DNA of 64,000 nucleotides from positions 299,708,001 to 299,772,000 of the forward strand of contig OZ024742.1 in NCBI GenBank assembly GCA_964016885.1, written 5' to 3'. Origin of the DNA: Eledone cirrhosa. Taxonomy: Eukaryota. The position numbers and the translations under genes were made by a program. This document shows positions 5,102-55,370 of this stretch, one piece after another (position 1 is the stretch's first letter; every line of letters starts with the position of its first letter). Below the pieces are notes generated by a model. The model was not told where the DNA came from. It did not search any database and saw nothing but the letters and a program-made list of their open reading frames with translations.

Positions 5102-6850
5102 TGTTTCTTTTATTTGCCACCAGGGCATCAAAAGTGGGACAAGTACAATGGGGGGAGTTTACAAAACAAGGTGTCCTCAATAAGGAGGAGGCAATAACAA
5201 TATATAAAAAAAAAATAAAATATAACAAAAAATAAAATTTATAACAAAGTCCTCAATAGAGAGGAGGCGCCTTGGGGGGTCGCACACACCCCCGAAAAAA
5301 GTGTGCAACCCTTCTCCTCAAGAGCACAGAGAAGGGGTGCTCCCTTGGTATTTCATCTTCCTCACCTATAGTCTGATGTAGAGTGAAGGCCCATTCACAC
5401 GGGCCATTCTCGCCACTTTCACCCATCTTTCATAGAAACGGCTGGGGTGCAGCACCTCTCTCTCCATCCTGATCCTTCTTCCGAAATGATATCGGAAGAA
5501 ACGGACCAGTTGTTGGCCAGAGAGAAAGGTGTCTGACCTCAGTCCTTTCAGACGCGTCCACCATACAACCTCTTTCGCCATGGCTATTACGCACAGAAAC
5601 ACCGCCTCTCCTTCGTTTTTGAAGAGGGGAGGCGGCTTGATCGTTACAATAGACTCGGTGGTCAACCGGATTGGTCCCACCCTTGACAGCAGTTGTTCGA
5701 CATAACCCCACAGATCGGCAATGCCCGAGCAGTGTACCAATGCGTGTGCAACGGTTTCCTCGTCGCACACGCATCTGGGACAGATCTTTTTCGATGGGTC
5801 CCTACCCGGGCGCCCGTGTCTGTAGAGCCTTTCTCGAACGGGCAGAGCCCTTCTGTAGCATTGCCAGGCCAGGGACCTCTGGAAGTTATCCATGGATCCC
5901 GGGCTGAATGTCCTACCGAACAGGTTGGCCAGTTCGTCTTCCTCCATGCCTAGGGCTTCTCCGAGGGCGTCGTCGCACCTGCTAACCACCAGCCCTCTAT
6001 AGAATGACGAGGTGGATTCTCCACTGACAGCCGGGTCCGCCTGCCAGAGAGCCGTGAGTGCCTGGGCACACTCGGTGTGCCAGGCGCCCAGTTTTCTCGG
6101 TCTTTGCTTGACCCAGGATTGCAGCTCGGTGAGTGAGACGAGTCTGGGATAGGCTCGCCTCACAAACGGGGCCCACACCGGTTGACCGGAGAGGAATACC
6201 TGAAGGTGCCGTAGCCTTAATGCGTGTTTACGTATCATTAGCCACGGCATCCCCAGCCCTCCTTTCGAAGGGTGTTGACAGCAGATGGATCTCCTCACCA
6301 TAGGAGCCCGCTTCTTCCAAAGGAATTGGAAGAGTGTGCGCTCCATTTTGGCGAGCGTTTCCCTTGGGCAAGGCACAACGGTCAGGCGGTAGTAGATGAC
6401 GGACGCTATATAAGTGTTCGCCACCTCCGCCCGTCCTTTCAGGGACAGTTTGCACTCGGCCCACTTCTGGGTCAGTGCAAACACCCTGTTCGTCACCTCA
6501 CCCCAGTTCTTCTCCACCTGGAGGTCTGGTCCGAACCAGACCCCGAGCAACTTCACTGGGCTCTCCGTCCAGCGCCCGACGACGCCATCGGAGGGCATCG
6601 ATCTTCCCCTCCACGTGCCGAGTTGCAGACCGATCGACTTGTCCCGGTTCAGCTTAGCCCCTGTAAACCTTTCGTACTCCTCCAGTAAGGTGCCGATCGC
6701 CCTGATTTCCAAGGCCGTCGACATCGGCGTAGGCTGACACCGCTTTCCGCAATCCCGGTTCCAACGGGATGCCCTGCAACAACTCCAACTTCCGCAGCAG
6801 TGGCTCTAGAGTCATTACATACAGAAGGGAGGAGAGAGGGCACCCCTGTC
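5101..6850 (-). mobile_element. 5'-truncated Tx1/L1-clade LINE (RT core end, zf-RVT, 3' UTR, (ATCT)n tail)
   Basis: 6850-6725 encodes IRQGCPLSSLLYVMTLEPLL...AYAD, then shifts frame into ORF 5366-6724 (GAKLNRDKS, KLLGVWFG, LSLKGRA, KGGLG, CPRC..ETVAHALVHC). AATAAA precedes the (ATCT)n tail. Confidence 0.9.
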
Positions 6851-31977: not shown

Positions 31978-32392
31978 GCTTAGTGATTAGAGAATTAGAT
32001 TCATTGTAAGTTCGAATCCCGGACTGGGTGATGCGTTATGTCCTTGAGCAAGACACTTTATTTCACGTTGCTCCTTCTACCTGGAATTGCGACCGATGGA
32101 TAGTATTAGCAATTGGAAAGACCGATGGACGTATATTAGTGGAGATGTTAGTGGGCTGTGGGAGGAGGGCTAGTAGGGGGCGGGGCGAAGAGATAGAAGG
32201 TGCTGGAGACAGTATGAGTGAGTGTAATGTACTGGTGTGTCTGTGCGTGTTTGGGTATGAGTGTTTGTTTGTGAGGTAGGGTGGGTGTTAGTATTATTAG
32301 TGGTGGGGGGGAATACGGGTGTGTGAGTGGGGGTTAGTGGTGGTAGTGTGGGTGTGAAGTGGGTGATGCATCGGTATATATATATATATATA

Positions 32393-32475
<83 letters not shown>

Positions 32476-32501
32476 TGTATATATATATATATATATATGT
32501 T

Positions 32502-32565
<64 letters not shown>

Positions 32566-32591
32566 TGCATATATATATGTGTGTGTATATA

Positions 32592-32652
<61 letters not shown>

Positions 32653-32862
32653 AATGGAAGTACAGCATATTCGAAGCTCGAGCCGCAGCTACGCCGACGA
32701 ATGCATTCAGAAGTGCAACCAAGCACTCGACAAGGTATAAAACCTCAGAGTAATAACATACAGTTTAAAGGGCTGTGCAAATTGAAAATAGCGACCGGTA
32801 ATTCAGCCGCGGGGTCCGTAGCAACGAAAGAACTAACTCGCGAGAAAAAATACATACATATA

Positions 32863-32903
<41 letters not shown>

Positions 32904-33531
32904 CCTGGACCATCGCTTCGAAATTTTGCAATATCTCAGTTAGGTTTCTGTAAATCCGAAATCAACAAAATCCGCTTGTAGTGTATGCAAGTTAAGTTTC
33001 TGGAAGATCGAACAGTGGATTTACTTTCTCAACAGGCTTTCGCTCTGACACCAGTCCGGTTGTGAGGGCACATGTTACTCCAAAGGGAGCTAACCCCAGT
33101 TTATGGCGTTCAAATACAAATTATAAGAAATGGAAAAAGTTCCATACACAAACTGAATTAAGCACTCAACCAGACCGTTATTAAACTAACATAAATAATT
33201 AACCAATCAATTGTATTGTCTAATTAAATCAATCAATTAATCATTAGGTCTAGGAGATAGTAATATAAATGGAAGTACAGCATATTCGAAGCTCGAGCCG
33301 CAGCTAAACCGACGAATGCATTCAGCAGTGCAGCCAAGCACTCGACAAGGTATAGGACGTCAGAGTAAACATTTCCAGCTGCAATGGCTAACTACTTCTG
33401 TCAGGCACCGAGACAGATTATTCTTACGTCGCATCAATGGGCATGTCGACAATTTGCGAACTGGTGTCAAGAGGAATTAGTTAATTACATCGAAATCGAA
33501 ATCATGCAGAAATAATAAACATGCTCCTGCT

Positions 33532-34299
33532 TTATTCACTTTTCTTCTTTTTAGCCGGAGTTTCGTTGTTCCATTCTATATTGAGTTTAAATTGTCCATC
33601 AACTGCATCTTCTTGTGAATTTGGTGGTACGGTTTCGTTACATTCTAGGATTATTGTATCGTTATCGGATTCTGGACTTGCAGGTTTAGATATATTTATG
33701 ATAGGTCTGTTTACCTCATCTACGCTTTCAATAGCTTCTAGTACTTTGCACAATTCTTCATCATCCGACGAAATTTCGTGATGTACTTGTAATTCTGAAA
33801 CGTAATCGTTAAAATGTATTTCCCACATTTCGGGAGTCAATTGTCTCTTCGTGCTTTTGAGAAACGGTGTTGCCGTTCTAAACATATATTTTGTTATTCT
33901 GCTTTTAAAAGCTTCTTTTTCGGTTGAAGGCGCGTGTCTATCAAACGGCGAGTTAGTAGTTATGAAAATAGGAGTTCTGTTAACTATCTGCGCAGGTTTA
34001 TATTTTATCTCTACAGCGCATGGTTCTCCCTCAGATATTTTTTTAAATGGTTGCAGTGTTTCTAATGTCATATTCGGTTCCTCAAATATTACAATTTCGG
34101 TATTAGGTATTTCCATGAATGGAAAATTGCTAGTTTCGTGTATCGTCGCTGTGTATCGAAATAGTTCTGCTATTGATTGTGTTATAAATGTCTTTCCGCT
34201 ATTAGGTACACCTTCTAGTACGAACGTGTTTTATTTAGGTTTCGATTTATTGATGATGTCCCACACATCTTGTATAAATTGGTGCTCGTCAATGCCTTG
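33532..34299 (-). pseudogene. Endogenous parvovirus/densovirus NS1 fragment (SF3 helicase plus acidic/NLS tail)
   Basis: QGIDEHQFIQDVWDIINKSKPK*NTFVLE, then Walker A GVPNSGKT (34212-34189), Walker B IVIFEEP, and EIKYK..RTPIFITTN (B'/C). One in-frame TAA at 34233-34231. Ends PAKKKKSE* with an overlapping AATAAA. Confidence 0.9.
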
Positions 34300-36037
34300 T
34301 TACCGACATGTTACCTCCGACATTAACCCAAGCCTTCATGTCGTCATGGAAAGACCTAACTAAAGCAAGGAACTTATCAGGGCAACCAAGTTTCTGGTGA
34401 ACCTTCCATAATGCATTTCTGTTAACAGTATCGAAAGCTTTTGTCAGATCGACAAAAACCTGATACAGATCCAAACCTTGTTCCATGCACTTCTCCTGGA
34501 GCTGTCCAGCTGAGAAGATCATATCAGTAGTGCCGCGTCCAGCACGAAAACCAGATTGACTTTCAGGAAGAACACAATCTGCAATGTGTGTCAGCAGACG
34601 GTCCAGAAGCACCCTACATAAAACTTTCCCTACGACAGAAAGCAATGATATACCTCTGTAGTTCCCACAATCATTCCTGTTACCCTTTCCCTTGTACAAG
34701 ACCACCATTACTGCATCTCTCCAGTCTTCAGGTACGGATTCATTAGCCCATATCCTGCCAAACAAAGAGTGAAGATGTTGCAGGAGTCTCTCACTACCAT
34801 ATTGTAGGAGCTCAGCATGTATGCCATCCATACCTGGATACCTTCCACTGTTCAGCTTCGAGATAGCCACTGCCATCTCCACGAGCGTCGGAGGTTATGC
34901 GAGAGCTATTTTCACAGGACTTTCTGGAATGAGATTGAGGAAATCTTCACTGACGACAGACGGCTGATTCAAAAGATCATCAAAGTGCTCTCGCCACCTT
35001 CGTAGAATTCTTTATGAGTCACGAAGAAGTTATTTGCCATCCTTGCTGCGGAGCGGTGTCACCAGAGAAGAAGACGGTCCATAAACCTTACGCAAGAGAC
35101 TGTAAAACAGCTTTGTGTTATTGGAATATGACGCAGTTTGTATCTCACCAGCCTTCTCACTCCACCACTGATCCTTCATCTGAGAAAGACTCCGCCTAAC
35201 ACGTGATTTTACATTCTTGAGTTCCTCATGCAACGTATTCCTCTCCTGTGGTTTTGCCGTCAAGTAGCGTGACAGAGCACGCCTCTTATCAGCCAACAAG
35301 TCTTCTATATGTACATCATTCTCATTAAACCAGTCCTGATGTTTTCTCTGCACCAATCCCAGAACACGCCTGCCTACATCATAAACCGACGTTTTAAGAG
35401 TCGGCCAATCCTCACCAAGATCTGCAGCCAATGTCCTCTTCACATTTTCACCCATAAGACGAGCAGCATTCAGTCTCCTAGTCAGGGTAACACCAGGAGC
35501 CCGGATTTTACGTTTAGTGATTAGTTTCACTTTTGCGCGTACTAGGCGGTGGTCCGTCCAGCACTCAGCTCCACGAAGAGCACGAACACACTGCACATCC
35601 TGTCTGTCACGCATCCTGATTAGGACGTAGTCCAAAATATGCCATTTCTTAGATGCAGGATGCATCCATGTGGTCTTGAATTTGTTCTTTTGTTGGAACA
35701 TGGTGTTGGTAACACACAGATCCAGTTCCTCACACATCTGCAGCAGGAGCATACCATTGTTGTTACACCTTCCCACCCCATGCCTTCCGATTACATTCCA
35801 TGTGTTAAAATCCCTACCCACTCTAGCATTAAAGTTACCAAGCACGATGACTTTGTCTGCCTGAGGGATATTTCTTAAAACACCTTTCAAGGCATGGTAA
35901 AAGGACACTTTTACTTCAACGACAGAATTCATAGTTTGAGCATACACACTCACCAGGGTCGCATATCTTCCTTTGTCCGGCGGAATTCTCATGGACATAA
36001 GACGCTCACTAATCCCTACTGGGAATTCTTCTAATTT
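34300..36037 (-). mobile_element. RTE-clade LINE internal fragment (APE endonuclease plus RT N-half)
   Basis: LGNFNARVG, TWMHPASKKWHILDYVL, TDHRLV; NYRGISLLS, ESQSGFR, FVDLTKAFDTV; frameshift near 35030-34900. Confidence 0.92.
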
Positions 36038-36083
36038 GTATATATACATACATACGTACATACATACATACATACATACATTC

Positions 36084-36114
<31 letters not shown>

Positions 36115-36149
36115 CATACATACATACATACATACATACATACATACAT

Positions 36150-39100
36150 AGAAAGGTCAGCTGACTCTAGTAGTAATTGTCACCACATCAACAACGAGGC
36201 TGAAATTCATGACTCTACTGAACAAACAGAGCACCAAAAACTTGTGGGCTCCCTACAAGTGATATGGAACGATATGTTTCAAGAGATACACAGCCTTAAT
36301 GTGAGTGACAGACCATACAACACTAGAGTCAGTAAAGAACCCACTAAATTGGAATTGGAAGCGGTGAACGAAATAGCTGGCAGTTATCTGAAGGCTATAC
36401 GATCTAAAGGTGTAGAAACGACATTTGAAACGCTTAATGTTTTGTTATATGTTTCAGCTGTCACATTGCTATCATATAACACACATCTAAAACCACGCAA
36501 TCAAGATACAAGCAGAAAGCCTGAACCAGCGTGGATGCGAAATTTAAAATCCAAAATGTTGTCCCTGAGACGAAGTATCTCACATATCGCAGTCGTTATG
36601 AAATGCAACATAGAGAGCAACCTCACACGACACCAGGAAGACCTAAAGATAAAGTTAGAGAGAAGATTTGGAGATACAAAATTTAAAACTTTGAACTCCA
36701 AATTACACCAGTTGAAACAACAACTCACAGCTACAACAGAAAGATTGAAATATAAGTCAACAGCACATAAACGACAAGTGCTAAATAGATTGTTTGCCAG
36801 AGATCCTAAATCAGTTTATCGCAGCTTCGGTGGCAAAAGCTCAATCTCTGTAAATGACACCCCTTCAAAAGAACAGGTTGAGAGCTACTGAAGATCTGTA
36901 TGGGAAACGGATGACGGATTCAACAGACAAACTAATTGGCTAAAAGAACTGGAACAGGACTACTGCCAACATGTCCAGACAAAACAATATGACATAGATG
37001 GGTCAATACTGGAAACAGCTCTACAGAAAATGTCGAATAGGAAATCGCCAGGCCCAGACCTCATTACAGGATACTGGTTGAAGAATTTCACTTTCTATCG
37101 GCAAGATCTCATACGGCTGTTTACAGAAACCATTAAGGGCACACAAGAACTGCCCAGATGGTTATCAACTGCCTCTACTCTCCTCATTCCCAAAAATAGC
37201 CAAACCACCCTTGCTAAAAATTACCGCCCAATTGCCTGCCAAAACATCATGTATAAATTATATACTGGGTGCCTTAACCTGTTCTTACAGGATCACTGTG
37301 CTACCAACAACATCATAACACCTGAGCAAGCTGGTGGAAAGAGGGAGGTGTGGGGTTGCATAGATCACCTACTAACTAACAAAATGATTCAGGAAAAAAC
37401 AACAAAGAATCGCAGAAACATGACTGTCGTGTGGCTGGACTATCAAAAAGCATTTGATAGTGTACCTCATGGTTGGATTGTTAAGGCTTTACAGTAAGCT
37501 AAAGTCCCACAACCATTGGTAGCTGCTGTTGAACGCCTGACCAAGAACTGGTACACCAGTTTGATCCTTAGAGGTGAGAAGGAGCAGGTTAAGACTGATA
37601 AGATACATTACCAGAAGGGCATCTTTCAAGGTGATAGCTTGTCAGTGCTACTCTTCGTTCTCTCACTGAATCCACTATCTTACCTACTCAGGAAACAAGG
37701 TGGACAAAGAAGTGGGCCCAGAAGTATCTCCCATCTTTTCTTTGTTGATGACCTGAAGTTGTATGGGCCAAATATCAATGACATCAAGAAACAATTGGAC
37801 CTCATTACACAATTTTCAACCGACATCAAAATGAAATTTGGTGAGTCCAAGTGTGCATATTTGGCAGTAAAACGTGGAAGAGCTGTGCCCTCCTCTAGAA
37901 ATCTAGAGATGAACGGCCTGACAATACAACCTCTGCAGTCAGGTGACAACTACAGATATCTTGGACAGGATGAGAATGTCAGATATGATGGACCCATAAA
38001 TAAGGAGAGAACCAGAACTGAATAACTCAGAAGAGTAAAGAAAATATGGTCATCAGAACTGTCAGCATACAACAAATACATTGCCCACAATACTTATGCT
38101 GTGCCAATTCTAACGCCAACATTTGGCCTACTGAACTGGTCATTGCAAGAACTAAGTGAGATGGATGTTAGAACTCGAAAACTTCTCAGTGTTACTGGGA
38201 ACTTTAACATCAATGGTGATGTGGATAGGCTATACTTCTCACGCAAGGAAGGTGGCCGGGGTCTAAAATCAATATTAACAACATATGAGACCCGGATAGT
38301 AACACTGAAGCAACACCTTCAACAGAGGAAAAAGGTTGGCAACCATCTTGCCCAGGTTTATGACCATGAAAAAAGAAATATCATTAGAATAGCGACTGAT
38401 CTGGAGGAGAGATATGGAATAAAGCCTGATATAAATCTCTCACCCAGAGAAATCGGAAGATCCTATTCAATGTTCAAACAAGATAAAAAAATTGACCAAT
38501 TTACAGAAAAAGTTGTGCATGGATACTTGAGGCGTAAAACACAGACCATAGAGGGGATAAACCACTCAAAAAGCCTGGCATGGAGTTCCGACAAGTTTAT
38601 GACATCACACCTTGAGGGATATCTCTATGCAATACAGGAACAAGAACTCCCTACCAAATATCTGCTGCACAAAAGAGGAGGGCCAGCAGCTGACAATAAA
38701 TGTAGGCTATGTAAAACAAAGATCGAGGATGTAAGCCACATTGTTGCCAGCTGCGAAAGAATGTCATCTCGCTACTACCTCCCCATGAGACACGATGGGA
38801 TAGCTAGAACCATCTGGAACGCACTTCGGAAAACAAAATTAACAACAAACGAGGAAGAATATATTGAGACAGATGGCACTAAGGAATACTGGTGGAACCT
38901 GAAAATAAAAACTGCCACCAAATTAAAGCACAACCGGCCTGATATTGTAGTTTGGGACCATACATTGAAAACGTGTTCTGTTGTGGAGATCAGCTGCCCA
39001 CTTGATGTAAACGTTGTCAGAAAAATGCAGGAGAAGGAGGACATCTACGGACCATTGATGAGGAGTTTACAAATCCAGTATCCAAGATACACCTTTAGCT

Positions 39101-39353
39101 TCATACCCATCATTATTGGTGCTACTGGTTATATACCAACCCGCTTGGACCAAAGTATGACTGAACTTGGATTTGCGGACAAAAAGCGCAGCTCCCTAAT
39201 TCATAGTCTACAAATGGCTGCGATAGCTGGCACCTTCAAAATTTGCAAAACATTCTTGCGATTCAAGGGATGACAATTTCTTTTCTTTTACAACCTTGCC
39301 ACCAGGAAGGTGGCCGGTCAAAAAAATATACTCGAAATTAAGAGAAAGAGAAA
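36150..39353 (+). mobile_element. R4/Dong-like non-LTR retrotransposon (RT, CCHC, restriction-like endonuclease), 5'-truncated, three in-frame stops
   Basis: Four ORF pieces share one frame: KSPGPD, NYRPIAC, LDYQKAFDSVPH, GIFQGDSLS, FVDDLK, CRLC..HIVASC, RHD, RPDIVV..VVEISCP. Confidence 0.93.
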
Positions 39354-40145: not shown

Positions 40146-40915
40146 TTTCTCTTTCTCTTAATTTCGAGTACATTTTTGACCGGCCACCTTCCTGGTGGCA
40201 AGGTTGTAAAAAAAAAGAAATTGTCATCTCTTGAATCGTAAGAATGTTTTGCAAATTTTGAAGGTGCCAGGTATCGCAGCCATTTTTAGTCTATGAATTA
40301 AGGAACTGCGCTTTTTGTCTACAAATCCAAGTTCAGTCATACTTTGGTCCAAGCGGGCTGGTATATAACCTGTCACTCCAATAATAATGGGTATAAATCT
40401 GAAGGTGCATCTTGGATACTGGATCTGCAAACTCCTCATCATTGGTCCGTAGATGTCCTCCTTCTCCTGTATTTTTCTGATAACGTTTACTCAAGTGGGC
40501 AGCTGATCTCCACAACAGAACACATTTTCAATGTGTGGTCCCAAACAGTAATATCTGGCCGGTTGTGCTTTAATTTGGTGACAGTTTTTATTTTCAGGGT
40601 CCACCAGTATTCCTTAGTGCCATCTATCTCAACATATTCCTCCTCATTTGTTTTTAATTTTGTTTTCTTTAGTGCATTCCAGATGGTTCTAGCTATCACA
40701 TCGTCTCCCATATGGAGGTAATAACGAGAAGATATTCTTTCACAGTTGGTAACAATGTGGCTAACATCTTCGATCTTTGTTTTACAAAGCCTACATTTAT
40801 TGTCGACTGATGGCCCTCCTCTTTTGTGTAGCAGATATTCGGTAAGGATTTCTTGTTCCTGTATTGCATAAATATATACTTCAAGGTGGGTTGCCATAAA
40901 CTTGTCAGAACTCCA
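40146..40915 (-). mobile_element. Second, shorter copy of the R4/Dong-like element
   Basis: CRLCKTKIEDVSHIV, KHNRPDI, KTFLRFK and the same 3' UTR. Confidence 0.93.
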
Positions 40916-40929
40916 TATATGTATGTTCT

Positions 40930-41145
40930 TCTTTCGGGACAAATGCATTCGATTTTCAGAGAGTGGAATTGGCCCCGTGCAAGCCCTTTCCTAAATTAAC
41001 AAAGCTTCAAGCACAGACATTGCTTAATATGTGACATATTCTTTTGCAATACATGGTATTGCTGGCCATAGGCAAGTCCCTAGCAGGACTAGGAAGCCAT
41101 GTCCGTGATGCTCATGCTTAAGTATCGAGTTGCAGCCATCATCAT
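40930..41145 (+). mobile_element. RTE 3' end remnant
   Basis: GKSLAGLGSHVR (zinc-finger-like) followed by gcagccatcatcat(gtat)n. Confidence 0.55.
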
Positions 41146-44232: not shown

Positions 44233-44960
44233 CGAACTTGTGAGTACATTTTCCTTTAACTACAAATTATTATTATATACTTTCGTCTTTTCATTAACTT
44301 AATTAATTTCAAATAACCAGAATATACATATATATATATATATATACTCATATTTATATATATACGCTTCTCACTCACACACAAGAAAAACAAAAAACAA
44401 AAATAAATCAAAAATCAAAAATAAATTTAAAAAAAATATATATATATATTGAAATACTTAACTAAAACACACACACCCGAACTTGTGAGTACATTTTCCT
44501 TTAACTACAAATTATTATTATATACTTTCGTCTTTTCATTAACTTAATTAATTTCAAAAAACCAGAATATACATATATATATATATATATACTCATATTT
44601 ATATATATACGCTTCTCACTCACACACAAGAAAAACAAAAAACAAAAATAAATCAAAAATCAAAAATAAATTTTAAAAAAAAATATATATATATTGAAAT
44701 ACTTAACTAAAACACACACACCCGAACTTGTGAGTACATTTTCCTTTAACTACAAATTATTATTATATACTTTCGTCTTTTCATTAACTTAATTAATTTC
44801 AAATAACCAGAATATACATATATATATATATATATACTCATATTTATATATATACGCTTCTCACTCACACACAAGAAAAACAAAAAACAAAAATAAATCA
44901 AAAATAAATTTTAAAAAAAATATATATATATTGAAATACTTAACTAAAACACACACACAC
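44233..44960 (+). repeat. Three 245-bp tandem monomers in the LINE 5' UTR
   Basis: cgaacttgtgagtac at 44233, 44478 and 44723. Confidence 0.95.
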
Positions 44961-44971
44961 TCAAAACTAGA

Positions 44972-46148
44972 ATGGCTAACCAGCAAAAATCCAAACAGAA
45001 CTGGTCTGATAATGAAATCGACATTCTAATAAACACATGGCATTGCCTTTCCCAAACTGAAGACATACATGCTTCATCTCTGAACGACATTGCTAAACGT
45101 ACAGTTCAATTTTTGAAAACTCGATCTGAACAACAGATTCAAAATAAATTAAAGCAAATCGAAATTGCTTTTAAATTAATCAATAAACATTTGGATAAAC
45201 TACGGTGTGTTTTCTCTTCGAATGCTGTCCAGCAGCAGCAACAACAACAACAACAGCTACAACAGCAACAACAACAACAGCTACAACAACAACATCAACA
45301 ACAGCTACAACAACAACATCAACAACAGCAACAACAACAACAACGACAACAACAGTGTGAACCACTCCTTGATTCATCAACAATGGCCGATCTACTAAAT
45401 GAAACTATTGACCCCCCCAGTAGCCTCTGTCTCACAGCATGAAACGCCACATCCTTTCTCTGGCCCAGCAGTCCAATCATCACCACTGCCAACATCTCTG
45501 CCTACTACTACTACTACTACTACAACATTTTTGTCTACTGCTATGTCAAGGAATTTACCTTCTAATACCAGAACAAGAACTCTCCCTCCCACAGTCCACA
45601 AAGGTCGTCAAATCCTACCCAAACCATCATCTACACCTCTCACAACACCCACACCCACATACCCACCCACTCGAAACCCCATCATTTGCCGCTACTCTCT
45701 ACGCTATAGAATATGTACGGATAGTGGCTGCAAATTCACCCATTTACCTAGGACAAAACGATCTATCCCCACAAACAGCCACCACCATAATACATACTCT
45801 AATTTAACACCAACACAACCACCAATAACTCAAACAAGGAATCCACAAATCTGCCGTTTTTCCCTGCGAGACAGATTGTGTTTAGACCGGGATTGTCCCT
45901 TTACCCATCTCCCGGGGACCCGTCGGATAAATGAAAATAAAATTAAAAATAAAAGCAAAAACAAAAACCATAACCTACATAAAAATAACCACTACCACAG
46001 TCACCAACAGTCTTCTAAACAGGAAACTTCTTCCTCTTTTTTAGCCATAATGAATCTGGCAAAAGAACTGGAAAAAAACATTCGAGCTATCACCCAGCAC
46101 CACCCTCCACTATCACCCCACTGCACAAACTCCCATTGCTGCCATTAA
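44972..46148 (+). CDS. LINE ORF1: Myb/SANT-like domain, polyQ, Thr/Pro linker and two CCCH fingers; split by a 1-nt shift, probably in the C7 run near 45412
   Basis: WSDNEIDILINTW..RSEQQIQNKLKQI; CRYSLRYRICTDSGCKFTH and CRFSLRDRLCLDRDCPFTH. Confidence 0.7.
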
Positions 46149-49100
46149 CAAACAAACAAATTAACAACACACCAAAACAATTAAAACCATCCACTCTCGC
46201 CTCTACATTTTTGCTTAACGCCCAAGGCATCAGCCCTTCCACCAATACTCAAAAATGGAAGATCAAATTCCTGGAGGACTGGATTGATGTCCATCCAAAC
46301 CACATCCCTTTCTTCGTCCTCACTGAAACCCATCTCAGTAACCTCCACTTGGAAGCCGAGGTGAAAGTGAAAAATTTCAAAGCCATCCGTGCTGATCGCG
46401 CTGGCAGAAGAAAGGGCGGAACTGCCATTTATGTCCATAATTCTTTCTCAACAGAGGCTATGAACATATTCACTAATGGATACTGGGAGGCAGTCACTGT
46501 ATTCAGTCAAACCAACAACCTATTAGTAGTTGGGCTCTATAGGCCACCCCAAACGCCTGTACCATGCTTCAAGGAATGCCTCAACAGCATAAAGTGTTTC
46601 ATCCAAGAGTGTCACCCTGACAACATCTTAATGATGGGGGACTTCAACCTCCCCGGAGTTGACTGGTCCACAAACACCCTGCCACCAGGTTCTTCTGCCT
46701 CAACCTCTGACAGGGAAGCTGTGGAATCGCTTCTTGACTTCATGGATGATTTCTTCCTATCCCAACTAGTGCTCGAACCAACGAGGTGCCACAAAAACGT
46801 CCTAGACTTAATTTTCAGCAATCACACTGAAAATATCCACAATATTGCAGTGGAGAAAACTCTACTCTCTGATCATGACATGGTTCTCTGTGATCTGAGA
46901 TTCCACCGTCCAATATACAAACCCAATGTCATCTCTCCTGTCCATCCGTTTGACGCTATGGATTTCCACAATGCAAACTGGGAAGCGATCAGTCATGATC
47001 TTGCACATGTCGACTGGTCCTTCACGCACACTCATACACCCACTAACATCAAAAAGTCCTGGCAGACATTTGTGGACACTGTTACAAACATATGTGCTAA
47101 ACACACCCCATTAAGAACTATAAACAAATCTAAGAGCAGAATCCCTAGAAATAGAAAAACGCTCATCAGAAAAATTAAGAGAACGAACAAAAAAATCAAC
47201 AAGCTGAAATACTGTCAGCAGCAACACATCAACTTGACTGCCATTTCATCACTAGAGATTAAAAAACATAACCTCCAAAACAACATAATGTCCCTCATCA
47301 ACAATCAGAGAAGAGCTGAAGAGGCCTGGGCCATTGAGAAGATCAAACTCAATCCCAAAGTGTTCTTTTCATTTGCAAAAAAACACAAAATCACTGGCTC
47401 TACTGTTGGCCCTCTAATTAATGAAAATGGCACTCTTCAAGACAATGCTAAAACCATGGGTGAGATACTGCAGAAACAATACTGCTCTGTTTTCAGCAAT
47501 CCTGATATGGCCGATCTGGGCTGTATCGGCGATGTTACTCCCCATTACACCTTATAGGACATAACGTTTGGCGCCCCTGATGTCTTGGCGGCAATAAAGG
47601 AAATCAAGCATAATTCAGCAGTAGGTCCCGATAGGTTCCCTGCTTGTGTCTTGAAGGCGTGTCAACACCAACTTGCTTCTCCTCTTGCCAATCTGTGGCG
47701 GAACTCACTGGATGCTGGATATGTGCCAGAAAACCTTCTATCCCAGTCTGTTGTCCCAGTTTTCAAAAAGGGAAACAAATCCCTTGCCGTGAATTACCGT
47801 CCAATCTCACTCACCTCTCATATCATTAAGGTATTTGAGCGAGTGGTGAGATCGCGAATGACCCACTTCCTTGAGAGTAACAATATGCTGAACTCCAACC
47901 AGCATGGATTCCGTAATGGAAGGGATTGCCTGACGCAACTACTGCATCACTTTGATGACATTTTGAGAGCCTTGGGAGAGGGTTCCAACACTGATGTTAT
48001 CTACCTTGATTTCAGCAAGGCCTTTGACAGGGTCGATCATAACATTCTACTGAGAAAGCTGTCCAATATTGGTGTCACTGGAAAGCTGCTGCAGTGGATC
48101 AAGAGCTTCCTGTCAAACAGAACCCAACATGTTGTAGTTGAGGGAGTCAAATCAAGCCCAGCCAAAGTCAGTAGTGGAGTCCCACAAGGCACTGTGTTGG
48201 GCCCACTTCTCTTCATCATCTATATTAATGACATCACTGACATCATCAAACACAGCAACATTAAAATTTTCGCTGATGATTCCAAGCTCCAAAAGGTCAT
48301 CAATGGCGTGGATGACCGGATAAGCCTTCAGTCAGACCTACTGGCTGTTACCCAATGGGCAGAAAAGAACAACATGTTACTGAACGAAGACAAATTCGAA
48401 CTGATCCACTTTGGAAAAGAGGATGCTCTGAAACTCCCGTACTCCCTTCCCTCCGGGGAAACTCTCGTGGCATCTAACAACATCAGAGACTTGGGAGTAA
48501 CCGTGGACAGCAACATAAGCTGGACCACGCATATAAGCAGCAAAGTTGACATGGCCCGCAGAATGTGTTCCTGGATCCTCAGAACCTTCCAGTCGAGAGA
48601 TTCCGGCACCATTATCCTTCTCTTCTCTACTTTCGCCCGACCACACCTTGAATACTGTTGTCCACTGTGGTCTCCCCACACGAAACAAAGTATCATGAAA
48701 CTTGAAGCTCCTCAAAGGGCAATCACGAAAAAGATAGATGGCATGTCAGACCTTGACTACTGGGGTCGATTGGAAAACCTGAAACTTTACTCACTCCAAC
48801 GACGCCGTGAGCGTTATATTATCTGCATGATGTGGAAAATGTTCCATCATCACTGCCCAAATGATGTTGGCATCGCCTTCAAGATACACCCAAGGCTTGG
48901 GCCCCGTGCTATCCGTCCCATTCAAAAATCTAAATCGCAACTCATAACAACAATACGGCACAATTATTTCACCTCAATCGGCCCTGCTCTCTTCAACATC
49001 ACACCAGGACACGTCAAAACAGAAACTGACCACACAAAATTCAAGAAGTCTTTGGACAAATTCCTCCAAGTAATCCCGGACAAACCACCCACACCCGGAT

Positions 49101-49156
49101 ATGTCTCCGCAAACAGTAATTCTCTTCTCGAATGGGCCATGGTGCCCAAATCCTGA
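46019..49156 (+). CDS. LINE ORF2, APE endonuclease plus reverse transcriptase; single in-frame TAG at 47555
   Basis: LTETHL, GDFNLP, LDL, SDH; NYRPISLTS, YLDFSKAFD, GVPQGTVLGP, FADD, RPHLEYC. Confidence 0.93.
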
Positions 49157-50890: not shown

Positions 50891-52026
50891 ACAAGTAAGT
50901 ATGTTTTGAAACAGTGAGCAGGTTTGAAATTAGAAAATAGAATAGCTTTCACCGTATTTTTGACTAAAGAAATAAATTTTAGTCAGATAATGGGGTTTAG
51001 AACTCTCAGATAAATGGAAAAAGATGAGTATTGACGTACATGGGAGTCGAGCCCACATCTTTGGTTATCCAGACCACTGTGCTACCATTACACCAGCACA
51101 TCGCCCATCTCCTTCCATTCAAATTAGAAGCTACATTCTTAGCGAGTATAAATGACAAGTAAGTATGTTTTTCCATTTATCTGAGGGTTCTAAACGCCAT
51201 TATCAGACTAAAATTTCTTTAGTAAAAAATACGGTGAAAGCTATTCTATTTTCTAATTTCAAACCTGCTCACTGTTTCAAAACATACTTACTTGTCATTT
51301 ATACTCGCTAAGAATGTAGCTTCTAATTTGAATGGAAAGAGATGGGTGATGTGTTGGTGTAATGGTAGCACAGTGGTCTGGATAACCAAAGATGTGGGTT
51401 CGACTTCCATGTACGTCAATACTCATCTATTTCCATTTATCTGAGGGTTCTAAACGCCATTATCAGACTAAAATTTCTTTAGTAAAAAATACGGTGAAAG
51501 CTATTCTATTTTCTAATTTCAAACCTGCTCACTGTTTCAAAACATACTTACTTGTCATTTATACTCGCTAAGAATGTAGCTTCTAATTTGAATGGAAAGA
51601 GAAGGGTGATGTGTTGGTGTAATGGTAGCACAGTGGTCTGGATAACCAAAGATGTGGGTTCGACTTCCATGTACGTCAATACTCATCTATTTCCATTTAT
51701 CTGAGGGTTCTAAACGCCATTATCAGACTAAAATTTCTTTAGTCAAAAATACGGTAAAAGCTATTCTATTTTCTAATTTCAAACCTGCTCACTGTTTCAA
51801 AACATACTTACTTGTCATTTATACTCGCTAAGAATGTAGCTTCTAATTTGAATGGAAGGAGATGGGTGATGTGTTGGTGTAGTGGTAGCACAGTGGTCTG
51901 GATAACCAAAGATGTGGGTTCGACTCCCATTTACGTCAATACTAATCTTTTTCCATTTATCTGAGGGTTCTAAACCCCATTATCAGACTAAAATGTCTTT
52001 AGTCAAAAATACGGTGAAAGCTATTA
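50891..52026. repeat. 260-bp unit array: one inverted copy plus 3.3 tandem copies
   Basis: ttccatttatctgagggttc at 51171, 51431, 51691 and 51951; reverse-complement copy at 50891-51170. Confidence 0.95.
51348..51418 (+). tRNA. tRNA-like cloverleaf, anticodon GGA, short variable loop (copies 51608-51678, 51868-51938, and 51032-51102 on -); probably a pseudo-tRNA
   Basis: Acceptor gatgtgy/gtacgtc; D arm gtgt-aatggta-gcac; anticodon arm tggt-ctGGAta-acca; T arm gtggg-ttcgact-yccat; A and B boxes present. Confidence 0.65.
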
Positions 52027-52141
52027 TATATATATATATATTTATTAAAATAACAGATTAGTCTTCAAATTTATTATTATTACTATATATATATATAAAA
52101 ATACAAATATTAATAAAATAGATGTTCTTTTTATCAATTAC

Positions 52142-52684: not shown

Positions 52685-53490
52685 GGTGGCTCTTAGCAAT
52701 AGGTAATTTTCCGAAAGTTAAACTTTTGCTACTCCCACCTCCTAATCCTGATTCAACTAACAAAATCACGGGCTGTGTAAAATTTCAGCTCAATCGGACA
52801 ATTGTTAGGTGACCCTCAAAGGCCTTGAAGTTGGAACATAGTATACGCAACGATCAATTCTGTTCAAAAGCCATTTTCTTTTTTCTTCTTAGAGAAATTT
52901 ATCTGGACACATCCAGGCAACCCCAGCAAATGTTTAAAAACGTTCTGAATCAAATTTACCAATATTTAATTTGAAAAATTCCTGAAATAACATGAAAAAC
53001 TTAAGAAATATTAGGTTTTCTTAATAAAGCACACAACTTCTATAAGAGAAACGCATTTTTATTTACAACAATAATTTCAATAGAATCAAAAACATAATGT
53101 GAACACTGAACACTGAATATTGAACATTATTTTTGCTGGCCTTGTGCCTAACGTAGAAACAATTATTTTTGCATAAGAGAGGATTTAGTGGCAGTTAGGC
53201 GTGTTTTTCAGTTTTCGGTAACGATCTGTAAGTTTCTCAGTTTCATCTTTTGTGAGAATGTTATTTTAATCCTGAATGAGTTTGACACCTCTTTCTGTAA
53301 CGTCATTCACAACAACTGTCTTCTCAAGTTTTTTAAGTCCACTTTTGTAACCAAGATCATACTTCCATGTTGAAGGAAATCGTTGCTGATAGAAAATCCT
53401 GTGAAGAAAGTGTTTGCACTAGGAGTTACAAAAGACGTTGATTTTTTTTCTTTTTCCTCTTCTTCACCTTTGTCTGCTTCCAGCATACCT
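52682..53490 (-). mobile_element. hAT (hATm-like) transposon end with transposase C-terminal relic
   Basis: Minus strand reads FVTPSANTFF..NDF/PSTW..VVNDVTERGVKLIQD*NNILTKDE; terminus taaggtggctctta at 52682. Confidence 0.6.
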
Positions 53491-55262
53491 TGCTCTCCTT
53501 TTCTCATTGCTCTCCGTGCTCTCCGTTTATCCTTGCTCTCCTTGCTCTTCTTTCTTCATTGCTCTCCTTGCTCTCCTTTTCTCATTGCTCTCATTGCTCT
53601 CCTTTTCTCATTGATCTCCTTGCTCTCCTTTTCTCATTGCTCTCTTTGCTCTTCTTTTATCCTTGCTCTCATTGCTCTCCCTTTCTCATTGCTCTCATTG
53701 CTCTCCATGTTCTCATTTTCTCATTGCTCTCCTTGCTCTCATTGCTCTCCTTTTCTCATTGCTCTCCTTGCTCTCCTTGTTCTCCCTTTCTCATTACTCT
53801 CCTTGTTCTCATTTTCTAATTGCTCTCCTTGCTCTCCCTTTCTAATTGCTCTCTTTGCTCTTCTTTTATCCTTGCTCTCATTGCTCTCCTTTTCTCCTTG
53901 CTCTCCTTTTCTCCGTTTCTTCTTCCTCGTCTTGCTCTACTTGTTCTCCCTTTCTCATTGCTCTTTTTGCTCTTCTTTTCTCCTTTTCTCCTTGCTCTCC
54001 TTGCTCTCCTTGCTCCCCTTTTATCCTTGCTCTCCTTGCTCCCCTTTTATCCTTGCTCTCCTTGTTCTCCTTTTCTCATTACTCTCCTTGTTCTCATTTT
54101 ATCATTGCTCTCCTTGCTCTCCTTTTCTCATTGCTCTCATTGCTCTCCTTTTCTCATTGCTCTCTTTGCTCTTCTTTTATCCTTGCTCTCATTGCTCTCC
54201 TTTTCTCCTTGCTCCCCCTTTCTCCTTTTCTTCTTCCTCGTCTTGCTCTACTTGTTCTCCCTTTCTCATTGCTCTCTTTGCTCTTCTTTTTCTCCTTTTC
54301 TCCTTGCTCTCCTTGCTCCCCTTTTATCCTTGCTCTCCTTGTTCTCCTTTTCTTATTACTCTCCTTGTTCTCATTTTCTCATTGCTCTCCTTGCTCTCCT
54401 TTTCTCATTGATCACGTTGCTCTCCTTTCTTCATTGCTCTCTTTGCTCTTCTTTTATCCTTGCTCTCATTGCTCTCCTTGTTCTCCTTTTCTTCTTCCTC
54501 GTCTTGCTGTGCTTGCTCTCCCTTTTTCATTGCTCTCCTTGCTCTCCTTGTTCTCCTTGTTCTCCTTGCTCTCCTTTTATCCTTGCTATCCTTGTTCTCC
54601 TTTTCTCATTACTCTCCTTGTTCTCATTTTCTCATTGCTCTCCTTTCTCTCCTTTTCTCATTGATCTGATTGCTCTCCTTTTCTCATTGTTCTCTTTGCT
54701 CTTCTTTTATCCCTGCTCTCATTGCTCTCCTTTTCTCCTTGCTCTCCTTTTCTTCGTTTCTTCTTCCTCTTCCTGCTCTCATTGCTCTCCCTTTCTCATT
54801 GCTCTCCTTGCTCTCCTTTTCTCCTTGCTCTCCTTTTCTCATTACCCTCCTTGCTCTCCTTTTCTCCTTGATCTCCTTGCTTTCACTTTCTCATTGCTCT
54901 CCTTTTATCATTTATCTTTTACCATTTATCTGCTTGCTCTCCTTTTCTCCTTTTCTGCTTTTCTCCTTGCTCTTCTTTCTCCCCTTGCTCTCACTTTCTC
55001 ATTGCTGTTCTTGCTCTCATTTTCTCCTTGCTCTCCTTGCTCTCCATTTCTCATTGGTCTCCTTTATCTCCTTTTATACTTGCGCTCCTTGCTCTCCTTA
55101 CTCTCCTTTTCTCCTTTTCTCCCTTTCTTCTTCCTCGTCTTGCTGTGCTTGCTCTCCCTTTCTTATTGCTCTCCTTGCTCTCATTTTCTCCTTGCTCTCC
55201 TTGCTCTCCATTTCTCATTGGTCTCCTTTCTCTCCTTTTATCCTTGCTTTCCTTGCTCTTCT
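53490..55262. repeat. 1.8-kb pyrimidine-rich minisatellite based on the 9-mer TTGCTCTCM
   Basis: ttgctctcc/ttgctctca/ttttctca units with higher-order blocks. Confidence 0.95.
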
Positions 55263-55370
55263 TGTATATATATATATACATATATCTGTATATATGTATA
55301 TATATACATATTACTCAATACCGAGTACTCATTTCTCTCAGCTGTCAACCACATACGGATATATGTATAT

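Follow-up and report, generated by a model that had tools for sequence, protein, structure and literature searches.

Fossils of rearranged parvoviruses next to repeats have been described before, and a 2016 listing already includes octopus ones. The available text of Francois et al. (PMC5013282) lists the Octopus bimaculoides sequences KOF81493/A0A0L8GWZ8 and KOF62817 together with Sepia and Euprymna sequences. Both of these octopus entries are genomic and carry a 'Yes' under 'Adjacent transposable element', in a table whose columns may be shifted (PMC5013282). The O. bimaculoides sequences and the viral gene in our window, as we call the whole 64,000-nt stretch of DNA analysed here, belong to the same NS1 family (46–50% to P0010, which is A0A0L8GWZ8, and 53% to P0013, a 172-aa protein with the N-terminus of KOF62817). 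The remark of the first-pass annotation that few cephalopod parvoviruses had been described needs qualifying, as parvovirus-related sequences, including the protein of this family, stood in the 2016 listing. Those entries are, as far as the available text goes, fragments without junction anatomy, whereas the window copy pairs with another fossil of the same genome (L092) in a separate sub-branch of a 45-row NS1 tree (96/91 support). Beyond that listing, we found no paper devoted to these octopus elements in a search that left most subscription journals and bioRxiv supplements outside, and the available portions of PMC13122204, PMC11357303 and PMC12287923 contain no cephalopod elements or LINE capture.

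Three other systems are close enough to be compared. The IHHNV element of Penaeus monodon (PMC8982415) is, like the window locus, made of reordered and inverted parvovirus fragments in a repeat-rich genome and is common to individuals; however, the part of that report available describes 9 kb with many repeated units between 590-bp host direct repeats, whereas the octopus insert has two pieces, 0.9 kb altogether, and is flanked by two unlike repeats that are both truncated. In the LINE chimeras described in the accessible parts of PMC2104539 and 10.1101/2025.02.02.635956, the captured RNA lies 5′ and the LINE 3′ end with its tail lies 3′, in one orientation and with flanking repeats. The U6/L1 and fungal two- and three-part chimeras share with the window a spacerless same-strand LINE join (PMC2104539), but order, orientation and tail all fail to match: in the window the order is reversed, one viral piece is antisense and the LINE tail is missing. 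Non-retroviral endogenous viral elements (EVEs) of mosquitoes that lie beside same-strand LTR elements have been read as copy-choice captures in piRNA clusters (10.1101/127498, in part). Mosquito and octopus fossils both share a strand with retroelements over tens of kilobases, but the mosquito cases join RNA viruses to LTR elements whereas the octopus ones join a DNA virus to mixed retroelement classes, with no clear strand bias around the window. Among viruses, a segmented densovirus (PMC10267136) and circular and segmented parvovirus-like groups (Buck et al., 10.1101/2024.03.25.586562) have been described, the latter in a text whose available part does not mention octopus.

The window contains a real, single-copy, rearranged parvovirus-type fossil. 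The viral insert totals about 0.9 kb in two pieces of opposite orientation and stands in a composite that runs (TA)n, high-copy repeat, inverted NS1 piece, NS1 3′ half, RTE piece, (ATAC)n (Table 1). Its anatomy, its three junctions, the loss of the RTE 3′ end, its single copy and its presence in several samples are directly established.

Table 1. Parts and junctions of the composite locus, in window coordinates.
Feature	Position	Strand	Remarks
(TA)n array	32375..32650	.	TRF; other end of composite
Truncated high-copy repeat	32651..33368	- (inferred from fixed end)	615-nt unit + 106-nt direct repeat
Junction 3, viral piece to repeat	33368/9
Inverted fragment of NS1 N-terminal half (~residues 141-180 of full-length relatives)	33369..33497	+	homology
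Junction 2, between the two NS1 pieces	about 33498-33530		~30 nt past AATAAA
AATAAA	33531..33536	-	overlaps NS1 stop; T-rich tract next; no poly(A), no stable hairpin
3′ half of parvovirus-type NS1 (SF3 helicase + acidic tail)	33532..34299	-	255 codons, one stop
Junction 1, RTE to virus	34300..34303	-	0-3 unassigned nt, out of frame, single copy
Internal RTE-type LINE fragment (endonuclease end to mid-RT)	34303..36037	-	1,735 bp
(ATAC)n array	36040..36150	.	at RTE 5′ truncation point, TRF; same repeat as RTE family 3′ tail

We assessed the identity of the larger viral piece. It carries the motifs GVPNSGKT, IFEEP and RTPIFITTN and a single nonsense codon (TAA, 34233–34231), as reported before, and has the Walker A, B, B′ and C motifs of an SF3 helicase. 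The earlier assignment to parvovirus-type NS1 was borne out by a Pfam Parvo_NS1 score of 53.5 bits (E 2e-14, cutoff 20) against 37.4 bits for papillomavirus E1, and the piece aligns with AAV Rep. In a PDB search the margin between parvoviral and other SF3 proteins was small (3e-7 vs 3e-6). The top match among 1.8 billion representatives is an unnamed 593-aa protein (45%). Parvo_NS1 scores higher in all 15 matches scanned out of the 150 listed, and 2 of 10 looked-up matches carry names, both Parvoviridae. Judged by these scores, parvoviral NS1 is nearer to the piece than any other type of SF3 helicase compared. Its nearest named relatives are Octopus proteins, in agreement with the cephalopod host that had been thought probable. 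A search for longer homologous proteins with the 232-aa piece as query found none. Only a 40-residue piece of the N-terminal half, where an HUH nicking domain would lie, is present in the window; full-length relatives show an HFH motif, which we take to be the HUH nicking motif. No capsid gene (often with a PLA2 domain) and no further viral piece were found in the window and the surrounding 264 kb.

The AATAAA that had been placed at the NS1 stop does overlap it, but the insert goes on past this signal into the inverted NS1 piece. The latter (33372–33497, + strand) has 37–51% identity to 17 out of 30 related loci and matches database proteins too. We weighed an ambisense capsid gene downstream of AATAAA and rejected it, as the sequence there is NS1. 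A possible microhomology of 6–7 nt at junction 3 was also discarded, being one base out of register and dependent on distant relatives. The unclassified repeat beyond that junction (2.8% from its family majority, 2,693 first-look genomic candidates) has one end fixed in (TA)n, while its other end is variable and falls at many places among copies. Its partial tandem direct repeat and fixed (TA)n end suggest a non-autonomous retroelement. Rfam returned only weak, microsatellite-driven matches. We do not claim a Penelope-type label for the 615-nt unit, as neither a Pfam identity nor a hammerhead motif was found for it.

The retroelement at the other end of the virus comes from a family with AP endonuclease and RT in one ORF and a microsatellite (ATGT)n tail (RVT_1 E 5e-16, endonuclease E 0.004). 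The clade is presumed to be RTE from its motifs and from the first-pass annotation. At least 39 copies occur in the genome, 93–96% identical, and TATG repeats terminate all 12 copies with a visible terminus among the 18 fetched. The window piece differs by 2.3% from the family majority and has three stops and a 15-nt deletion. Its 5′ truncation exceeds 450 nt, and about 1.7 kb (1.6–1.8) is lost at the 3′ end, including the (ATGT)n tail; this missing half was not found within 264 kb around. The family sequence continues past the junction in all 19 full-length matches. The RT frame terminates at ..AWVNVGGNMS near 34300, as the first-pass annotation stated: eight other copies match to 34305–34302 (family copies to 34303/34302) and then diverge. 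Similarity of NS1 to other genomic loci begins at 34299, 2–3 nt past the RTE end, so the supposed spacerless join stands to within a gap of 0–3 nt. The reading frames of RTE and virus do not match at the fusion, and that of the RTE meets a stop four codons into the virus. Because of this and the three RTE stops, no fusion protein is encoded, and the octopus locus is predicted to be an inert fossil. A search of the 3.0-Gb genome for the 26-mer across junction 1, with two mismatches or fewer tolerated, gave this single site; the check proposed before, for other copies with this junction, found none. Microhomology at the junctions is unreadable: the closest viral relative is just 68% identical.

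The 5′ flank of the RTE piece is the tail repeat of its own family, and several other truncated copies have similar 5′ flanks. This fits an ordinary insertion, primed from its own 3′ end, that afterwards lost that end. The argument is indecisive because the neighbouring LINE bears the same repeat on its flanks, and the (ATAC)n array might be part of that LINE rather than of the RTE. The RTE piece also has an excess of G-to-A changes (14 vs 3), which we dropped as a special feature of the window since it occurs in most other copies.

Sequencing reads support the locus as a shared germline element. In three short-read runs, all of one sample that is possibly the source of the assembly, one contig each covers 33329–34328/32 at a depth of 5–13 and crosses junctions 2 and 3. 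The same contigs overlap the RTE by 26–30 nt, just below the 31-nt bridge rule applied, so junction 1 is likely shared too, short of strict bridging. They have single-copy depth and resolve two alleles that differ at two sites. RAD-seq data of another study contain one or two viral reads in three out of three samples, one of which has unbroken depth across junctions 2 and 3. No skipping joint was seen among the reads, which could not show an empty allele. A misassembly, or a contaminating virus joined to repeats, is scarcely credible. The short RTE overlap and the single, perhaps identical, sample would allow it; the contigs recovered in every run, the two alleles, the RAD-seq reads and the broken ORF speak against it.

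We compared the insert with related fossils in the genome, where searches gave at least 44 matches for the helicase piece and 69 for a longer relative. Rows with <80 aligned residues were excluded from the NS1 tree; the one virus with a name in it, at 32%, is an uncultured densovirus, which sits on a long branch. The densovirus-like affinity suggested in the first-pass annotation is a tentative one. IMG/VR, scanned with a full-length relative as query, yielded nothing related. The copies number dozens and range from near-identical to decayed, a record of repeated germline infection of an octopus by at least three NS1 lineages of unusual gene order. Three other fossil stretches out of 32 are inverted, and 11 out of 32 are inverted or have repeated pieces; 59 of 108 fossil block ends are cut mid-gene. 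A hairpin follows NS1, past the poly(A) signal, in three relatives and is lacking in the window. Since a processed mRNA would be without it, this hairpin favours DNA as the source, as do the inverted and repeated fossils.

The NS1 proteins of L084 (C998), L085 (C10) and L089 (C14) are 97–100% identical, each with a partial inverted repeat of the element. To go by this similarity, they are very recent integrations, and their stretches have no retroelement coding match. ORFs with a PLA2 domain (PF08398) are linked to relatives, as is a weakly capsid-like ORF with a low recognition score and no match in PDB. In L078, L079, L082, L095, L096, L102, L103 and L107 a 527-aa PLA2-domain ORF lies upstream of NS1, an unusual order. 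A second set, a PLA2/capsid-like ORF followed by a 24%-identical second NS1, often lies within the same locus. Co-infection, or a virus with a segmented genome, would account for two gene sets per locus. L087 (6480–6570) and L097 (4350–4470) share a conserved stretch past the post-NS1 hairpin with a small stem-loop, the loop being ATAAGCCGATTA, which is reminiscent of a rolling-circle origin.

Retroelement-coding DNA lies directly at 3 out of 59 broken viral ends, where about 4 are expected from its 7.5% cover, so direct fusions are no more frequent than chance. In all three (window, L087, L097) the retroelement is 5′ of NS1 and on the same strand. The 3′ ends of L090 and L103, once counted as direct junctions, vanished with a trimmed library and were dropped. 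L087 (1545–4517; G000:C18, about 15.08 Mb) holds a 991-codon frame in which Ty3/gypsy pol (protease, RT, RNase H and cut integrase) is in frame with NS1 from about residue 80. It makes a stronger case for capture by a reverse transcriptase than the window does. L097 (4200–5559; G000:C13, about 30.71 Mb) has 413 nt from the interior of a high-copy LINE, presumably Tx1-like from its motifs, fused 5′ of an NS1 3′ end that retains its poly(A) signal and long hairpin. A role for a reverse transcriptase is still conceivable in view of these two loci, with same-strand retroelement coding DNA 5′ of NS1; LINE capture of a viral mRNA is not supported.

Where retroelement pieces lie no more than 1.5 kb from other fossils, 12 out of 13 are on the viral strand, against 7 out of 12 further out in the same stretches. 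At 5–40 kb this strand is shared by 32 out of 40 pieces, which are non-independent and come from eight chosen regions searched with a repeat library of about 7 families. The strand sharing was noted across L078–L108 and L135–L174. Because the bias reaches this far, it looks regional and is by itself no sign of co-insertion. Same-strand fossil clusters lie at C12, C18, C27, C3 (58 Mb) and C841. Around the window the bias is weak or absent (9,345 + vs 8,881 - bases in 264 kb). Piwi-cluster-like domains or long introns are possible sources of the strand sharing. The single locus matters little and the wider fossil set is more useful, as its strand sharing with retroelements allows the question whether molluscs have an antiviral memory of piRNA type to be put to small-RNA data that already exist.

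Chromosome breaks can be closed by end joining. The origin we prefer, with about even confidence, is that rearranged viral DNA patched such a break, at the cost of the 1.7 kb at the 3′ end of a resident RTE copy. The RTE and the 0.7-kb repeat would have inserted independently into a single compound (TA)n/(CATA)n microsatellite, and a break between or within them would have been sealed when its ends were joined to viral DNA in which replication had produced a fold-back or a template switch. All steps would fall within a similar span of 2–3% divergence, or about 6 My on the O. vulgaris scale (age scale and ~66% repeat content from the available part of PMC13282606). The inverted second viral piece, the lack of poly(A) and the absent LINE 3′ tail argue for patching. 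So do the family tail repeat on the RTE's 5′ flank, the frequent rearrangement of the other fossils, the hairpins of three relatives, direct retroelement junctions at chance level, the single NS1 stop, which fits the RTE's age, and the precedent of the jumbled shrimp element (PMC8982415). Against it, no empty or ancestral allele was seen and the order of events is reconstructed. RTE and repeat are also similar in age (2.3% and 2.8%), and the TA runs on the outer flanks could be a target duplication; both count against patching because a single insertion would also give them. Finally, the 12 out of 13 same-strand neighbours and the three junctions of one polarity repeat the mosquito copy-choice pattern. 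A somewhat unlikely alternative is that a jumbled, longer viral fossil and an ordinary RTE inserted separately near each other, and a later deletion took away part of the virus, the 3′ end of the RTE and whatever lay between them; as for the repeat of 0.7 kb, it may be a normal 5′-truncated insertion beside the virus. The inverted piece, the missing RTE 3′ end and the family-tail 5′ flank fit a deletion equally well, and fossil ends cut mid-gene and the many positions of the repeat's variable end agree with it. Yet one or two extra events within a short time would be needed, and the virus seems to be of the same age as the RTE or younger: 0.8 stops are expected in NS1 at the RTE's age and one is seen, in a loose divergence range of 0.1–16%.

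We also considered origins by reverse transcription. A 3.4-kb composite made in one event with three template jumps, from (TA)n-primed repeat RNA to an antisense viral strand, to sense NS1 RNA or DNA and to RTE RNA, is unlikely. It would account for the one strand of RTE, NS1 3′ piece and, by its fixed end, probably the repeat, as well as for the similar ages, the outer TA runs and the fusions of the same polarity at L087 and L097, and three-part LINE chimeras are known (PMC2104539, in part). It requires a jump onto an antisense strand, however; the known chimeras terminate in the tailed 3′ end of a LINE or SINE, the distant strand sharing need not mean co-insertion, and direct junctions are not in excess. 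Distinctly unlikely is the broader idea that RTs of three classes (RTE, the LINE of L097 and Ty3/gypsy of L087) have captured, time and again, strands from a parvovirus-like lineage of octopus that is undescribed and deposited them, always on one strand, in strand-biased repeat domains that would serve as piRNA-cluster-like antiviral memory, this locus being one multi-jump product. The LINE capture of a viral mRNA proposed in the first-pass annotation, with the RTE enzyme starting on the viral poly(A) and switching once to RTE RNA, is very improbable. The shared strand and the AATAAA at the NS1 stop are as it would have them; on the other side stand the polarity, opposite to that of known LINE chimeras, the missing LINE 3′ tail and the lack of poly(A). 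No target duplication surrounds the virus or virus plus RTE, and only TA runs flank the whole composite. The antisense viral continuation past the signal largely refutes this model.

Other repeats in the window were also recorded. A near-whole LINE (36013–39273, +) with RT and a C-terminal zinc domain, flanked by ATAC/TACA arrays, stands head to head with the RTE and is presumably R4/Dong-like from its motifs. A partial inverted copy of it lies 1.2 kb beyond (40487–40990, -). Two further LINE remnants are at 45399–49156 (+; endonuclease and RT) and 5366–6805 (-; zinc-binding C-terminus). Tandem arrays at 44233–44958, 51170–52029 and 53488–55265 have 245-nt, 260-nt and pyrimidine-rich 17–52-nt units, respectively.
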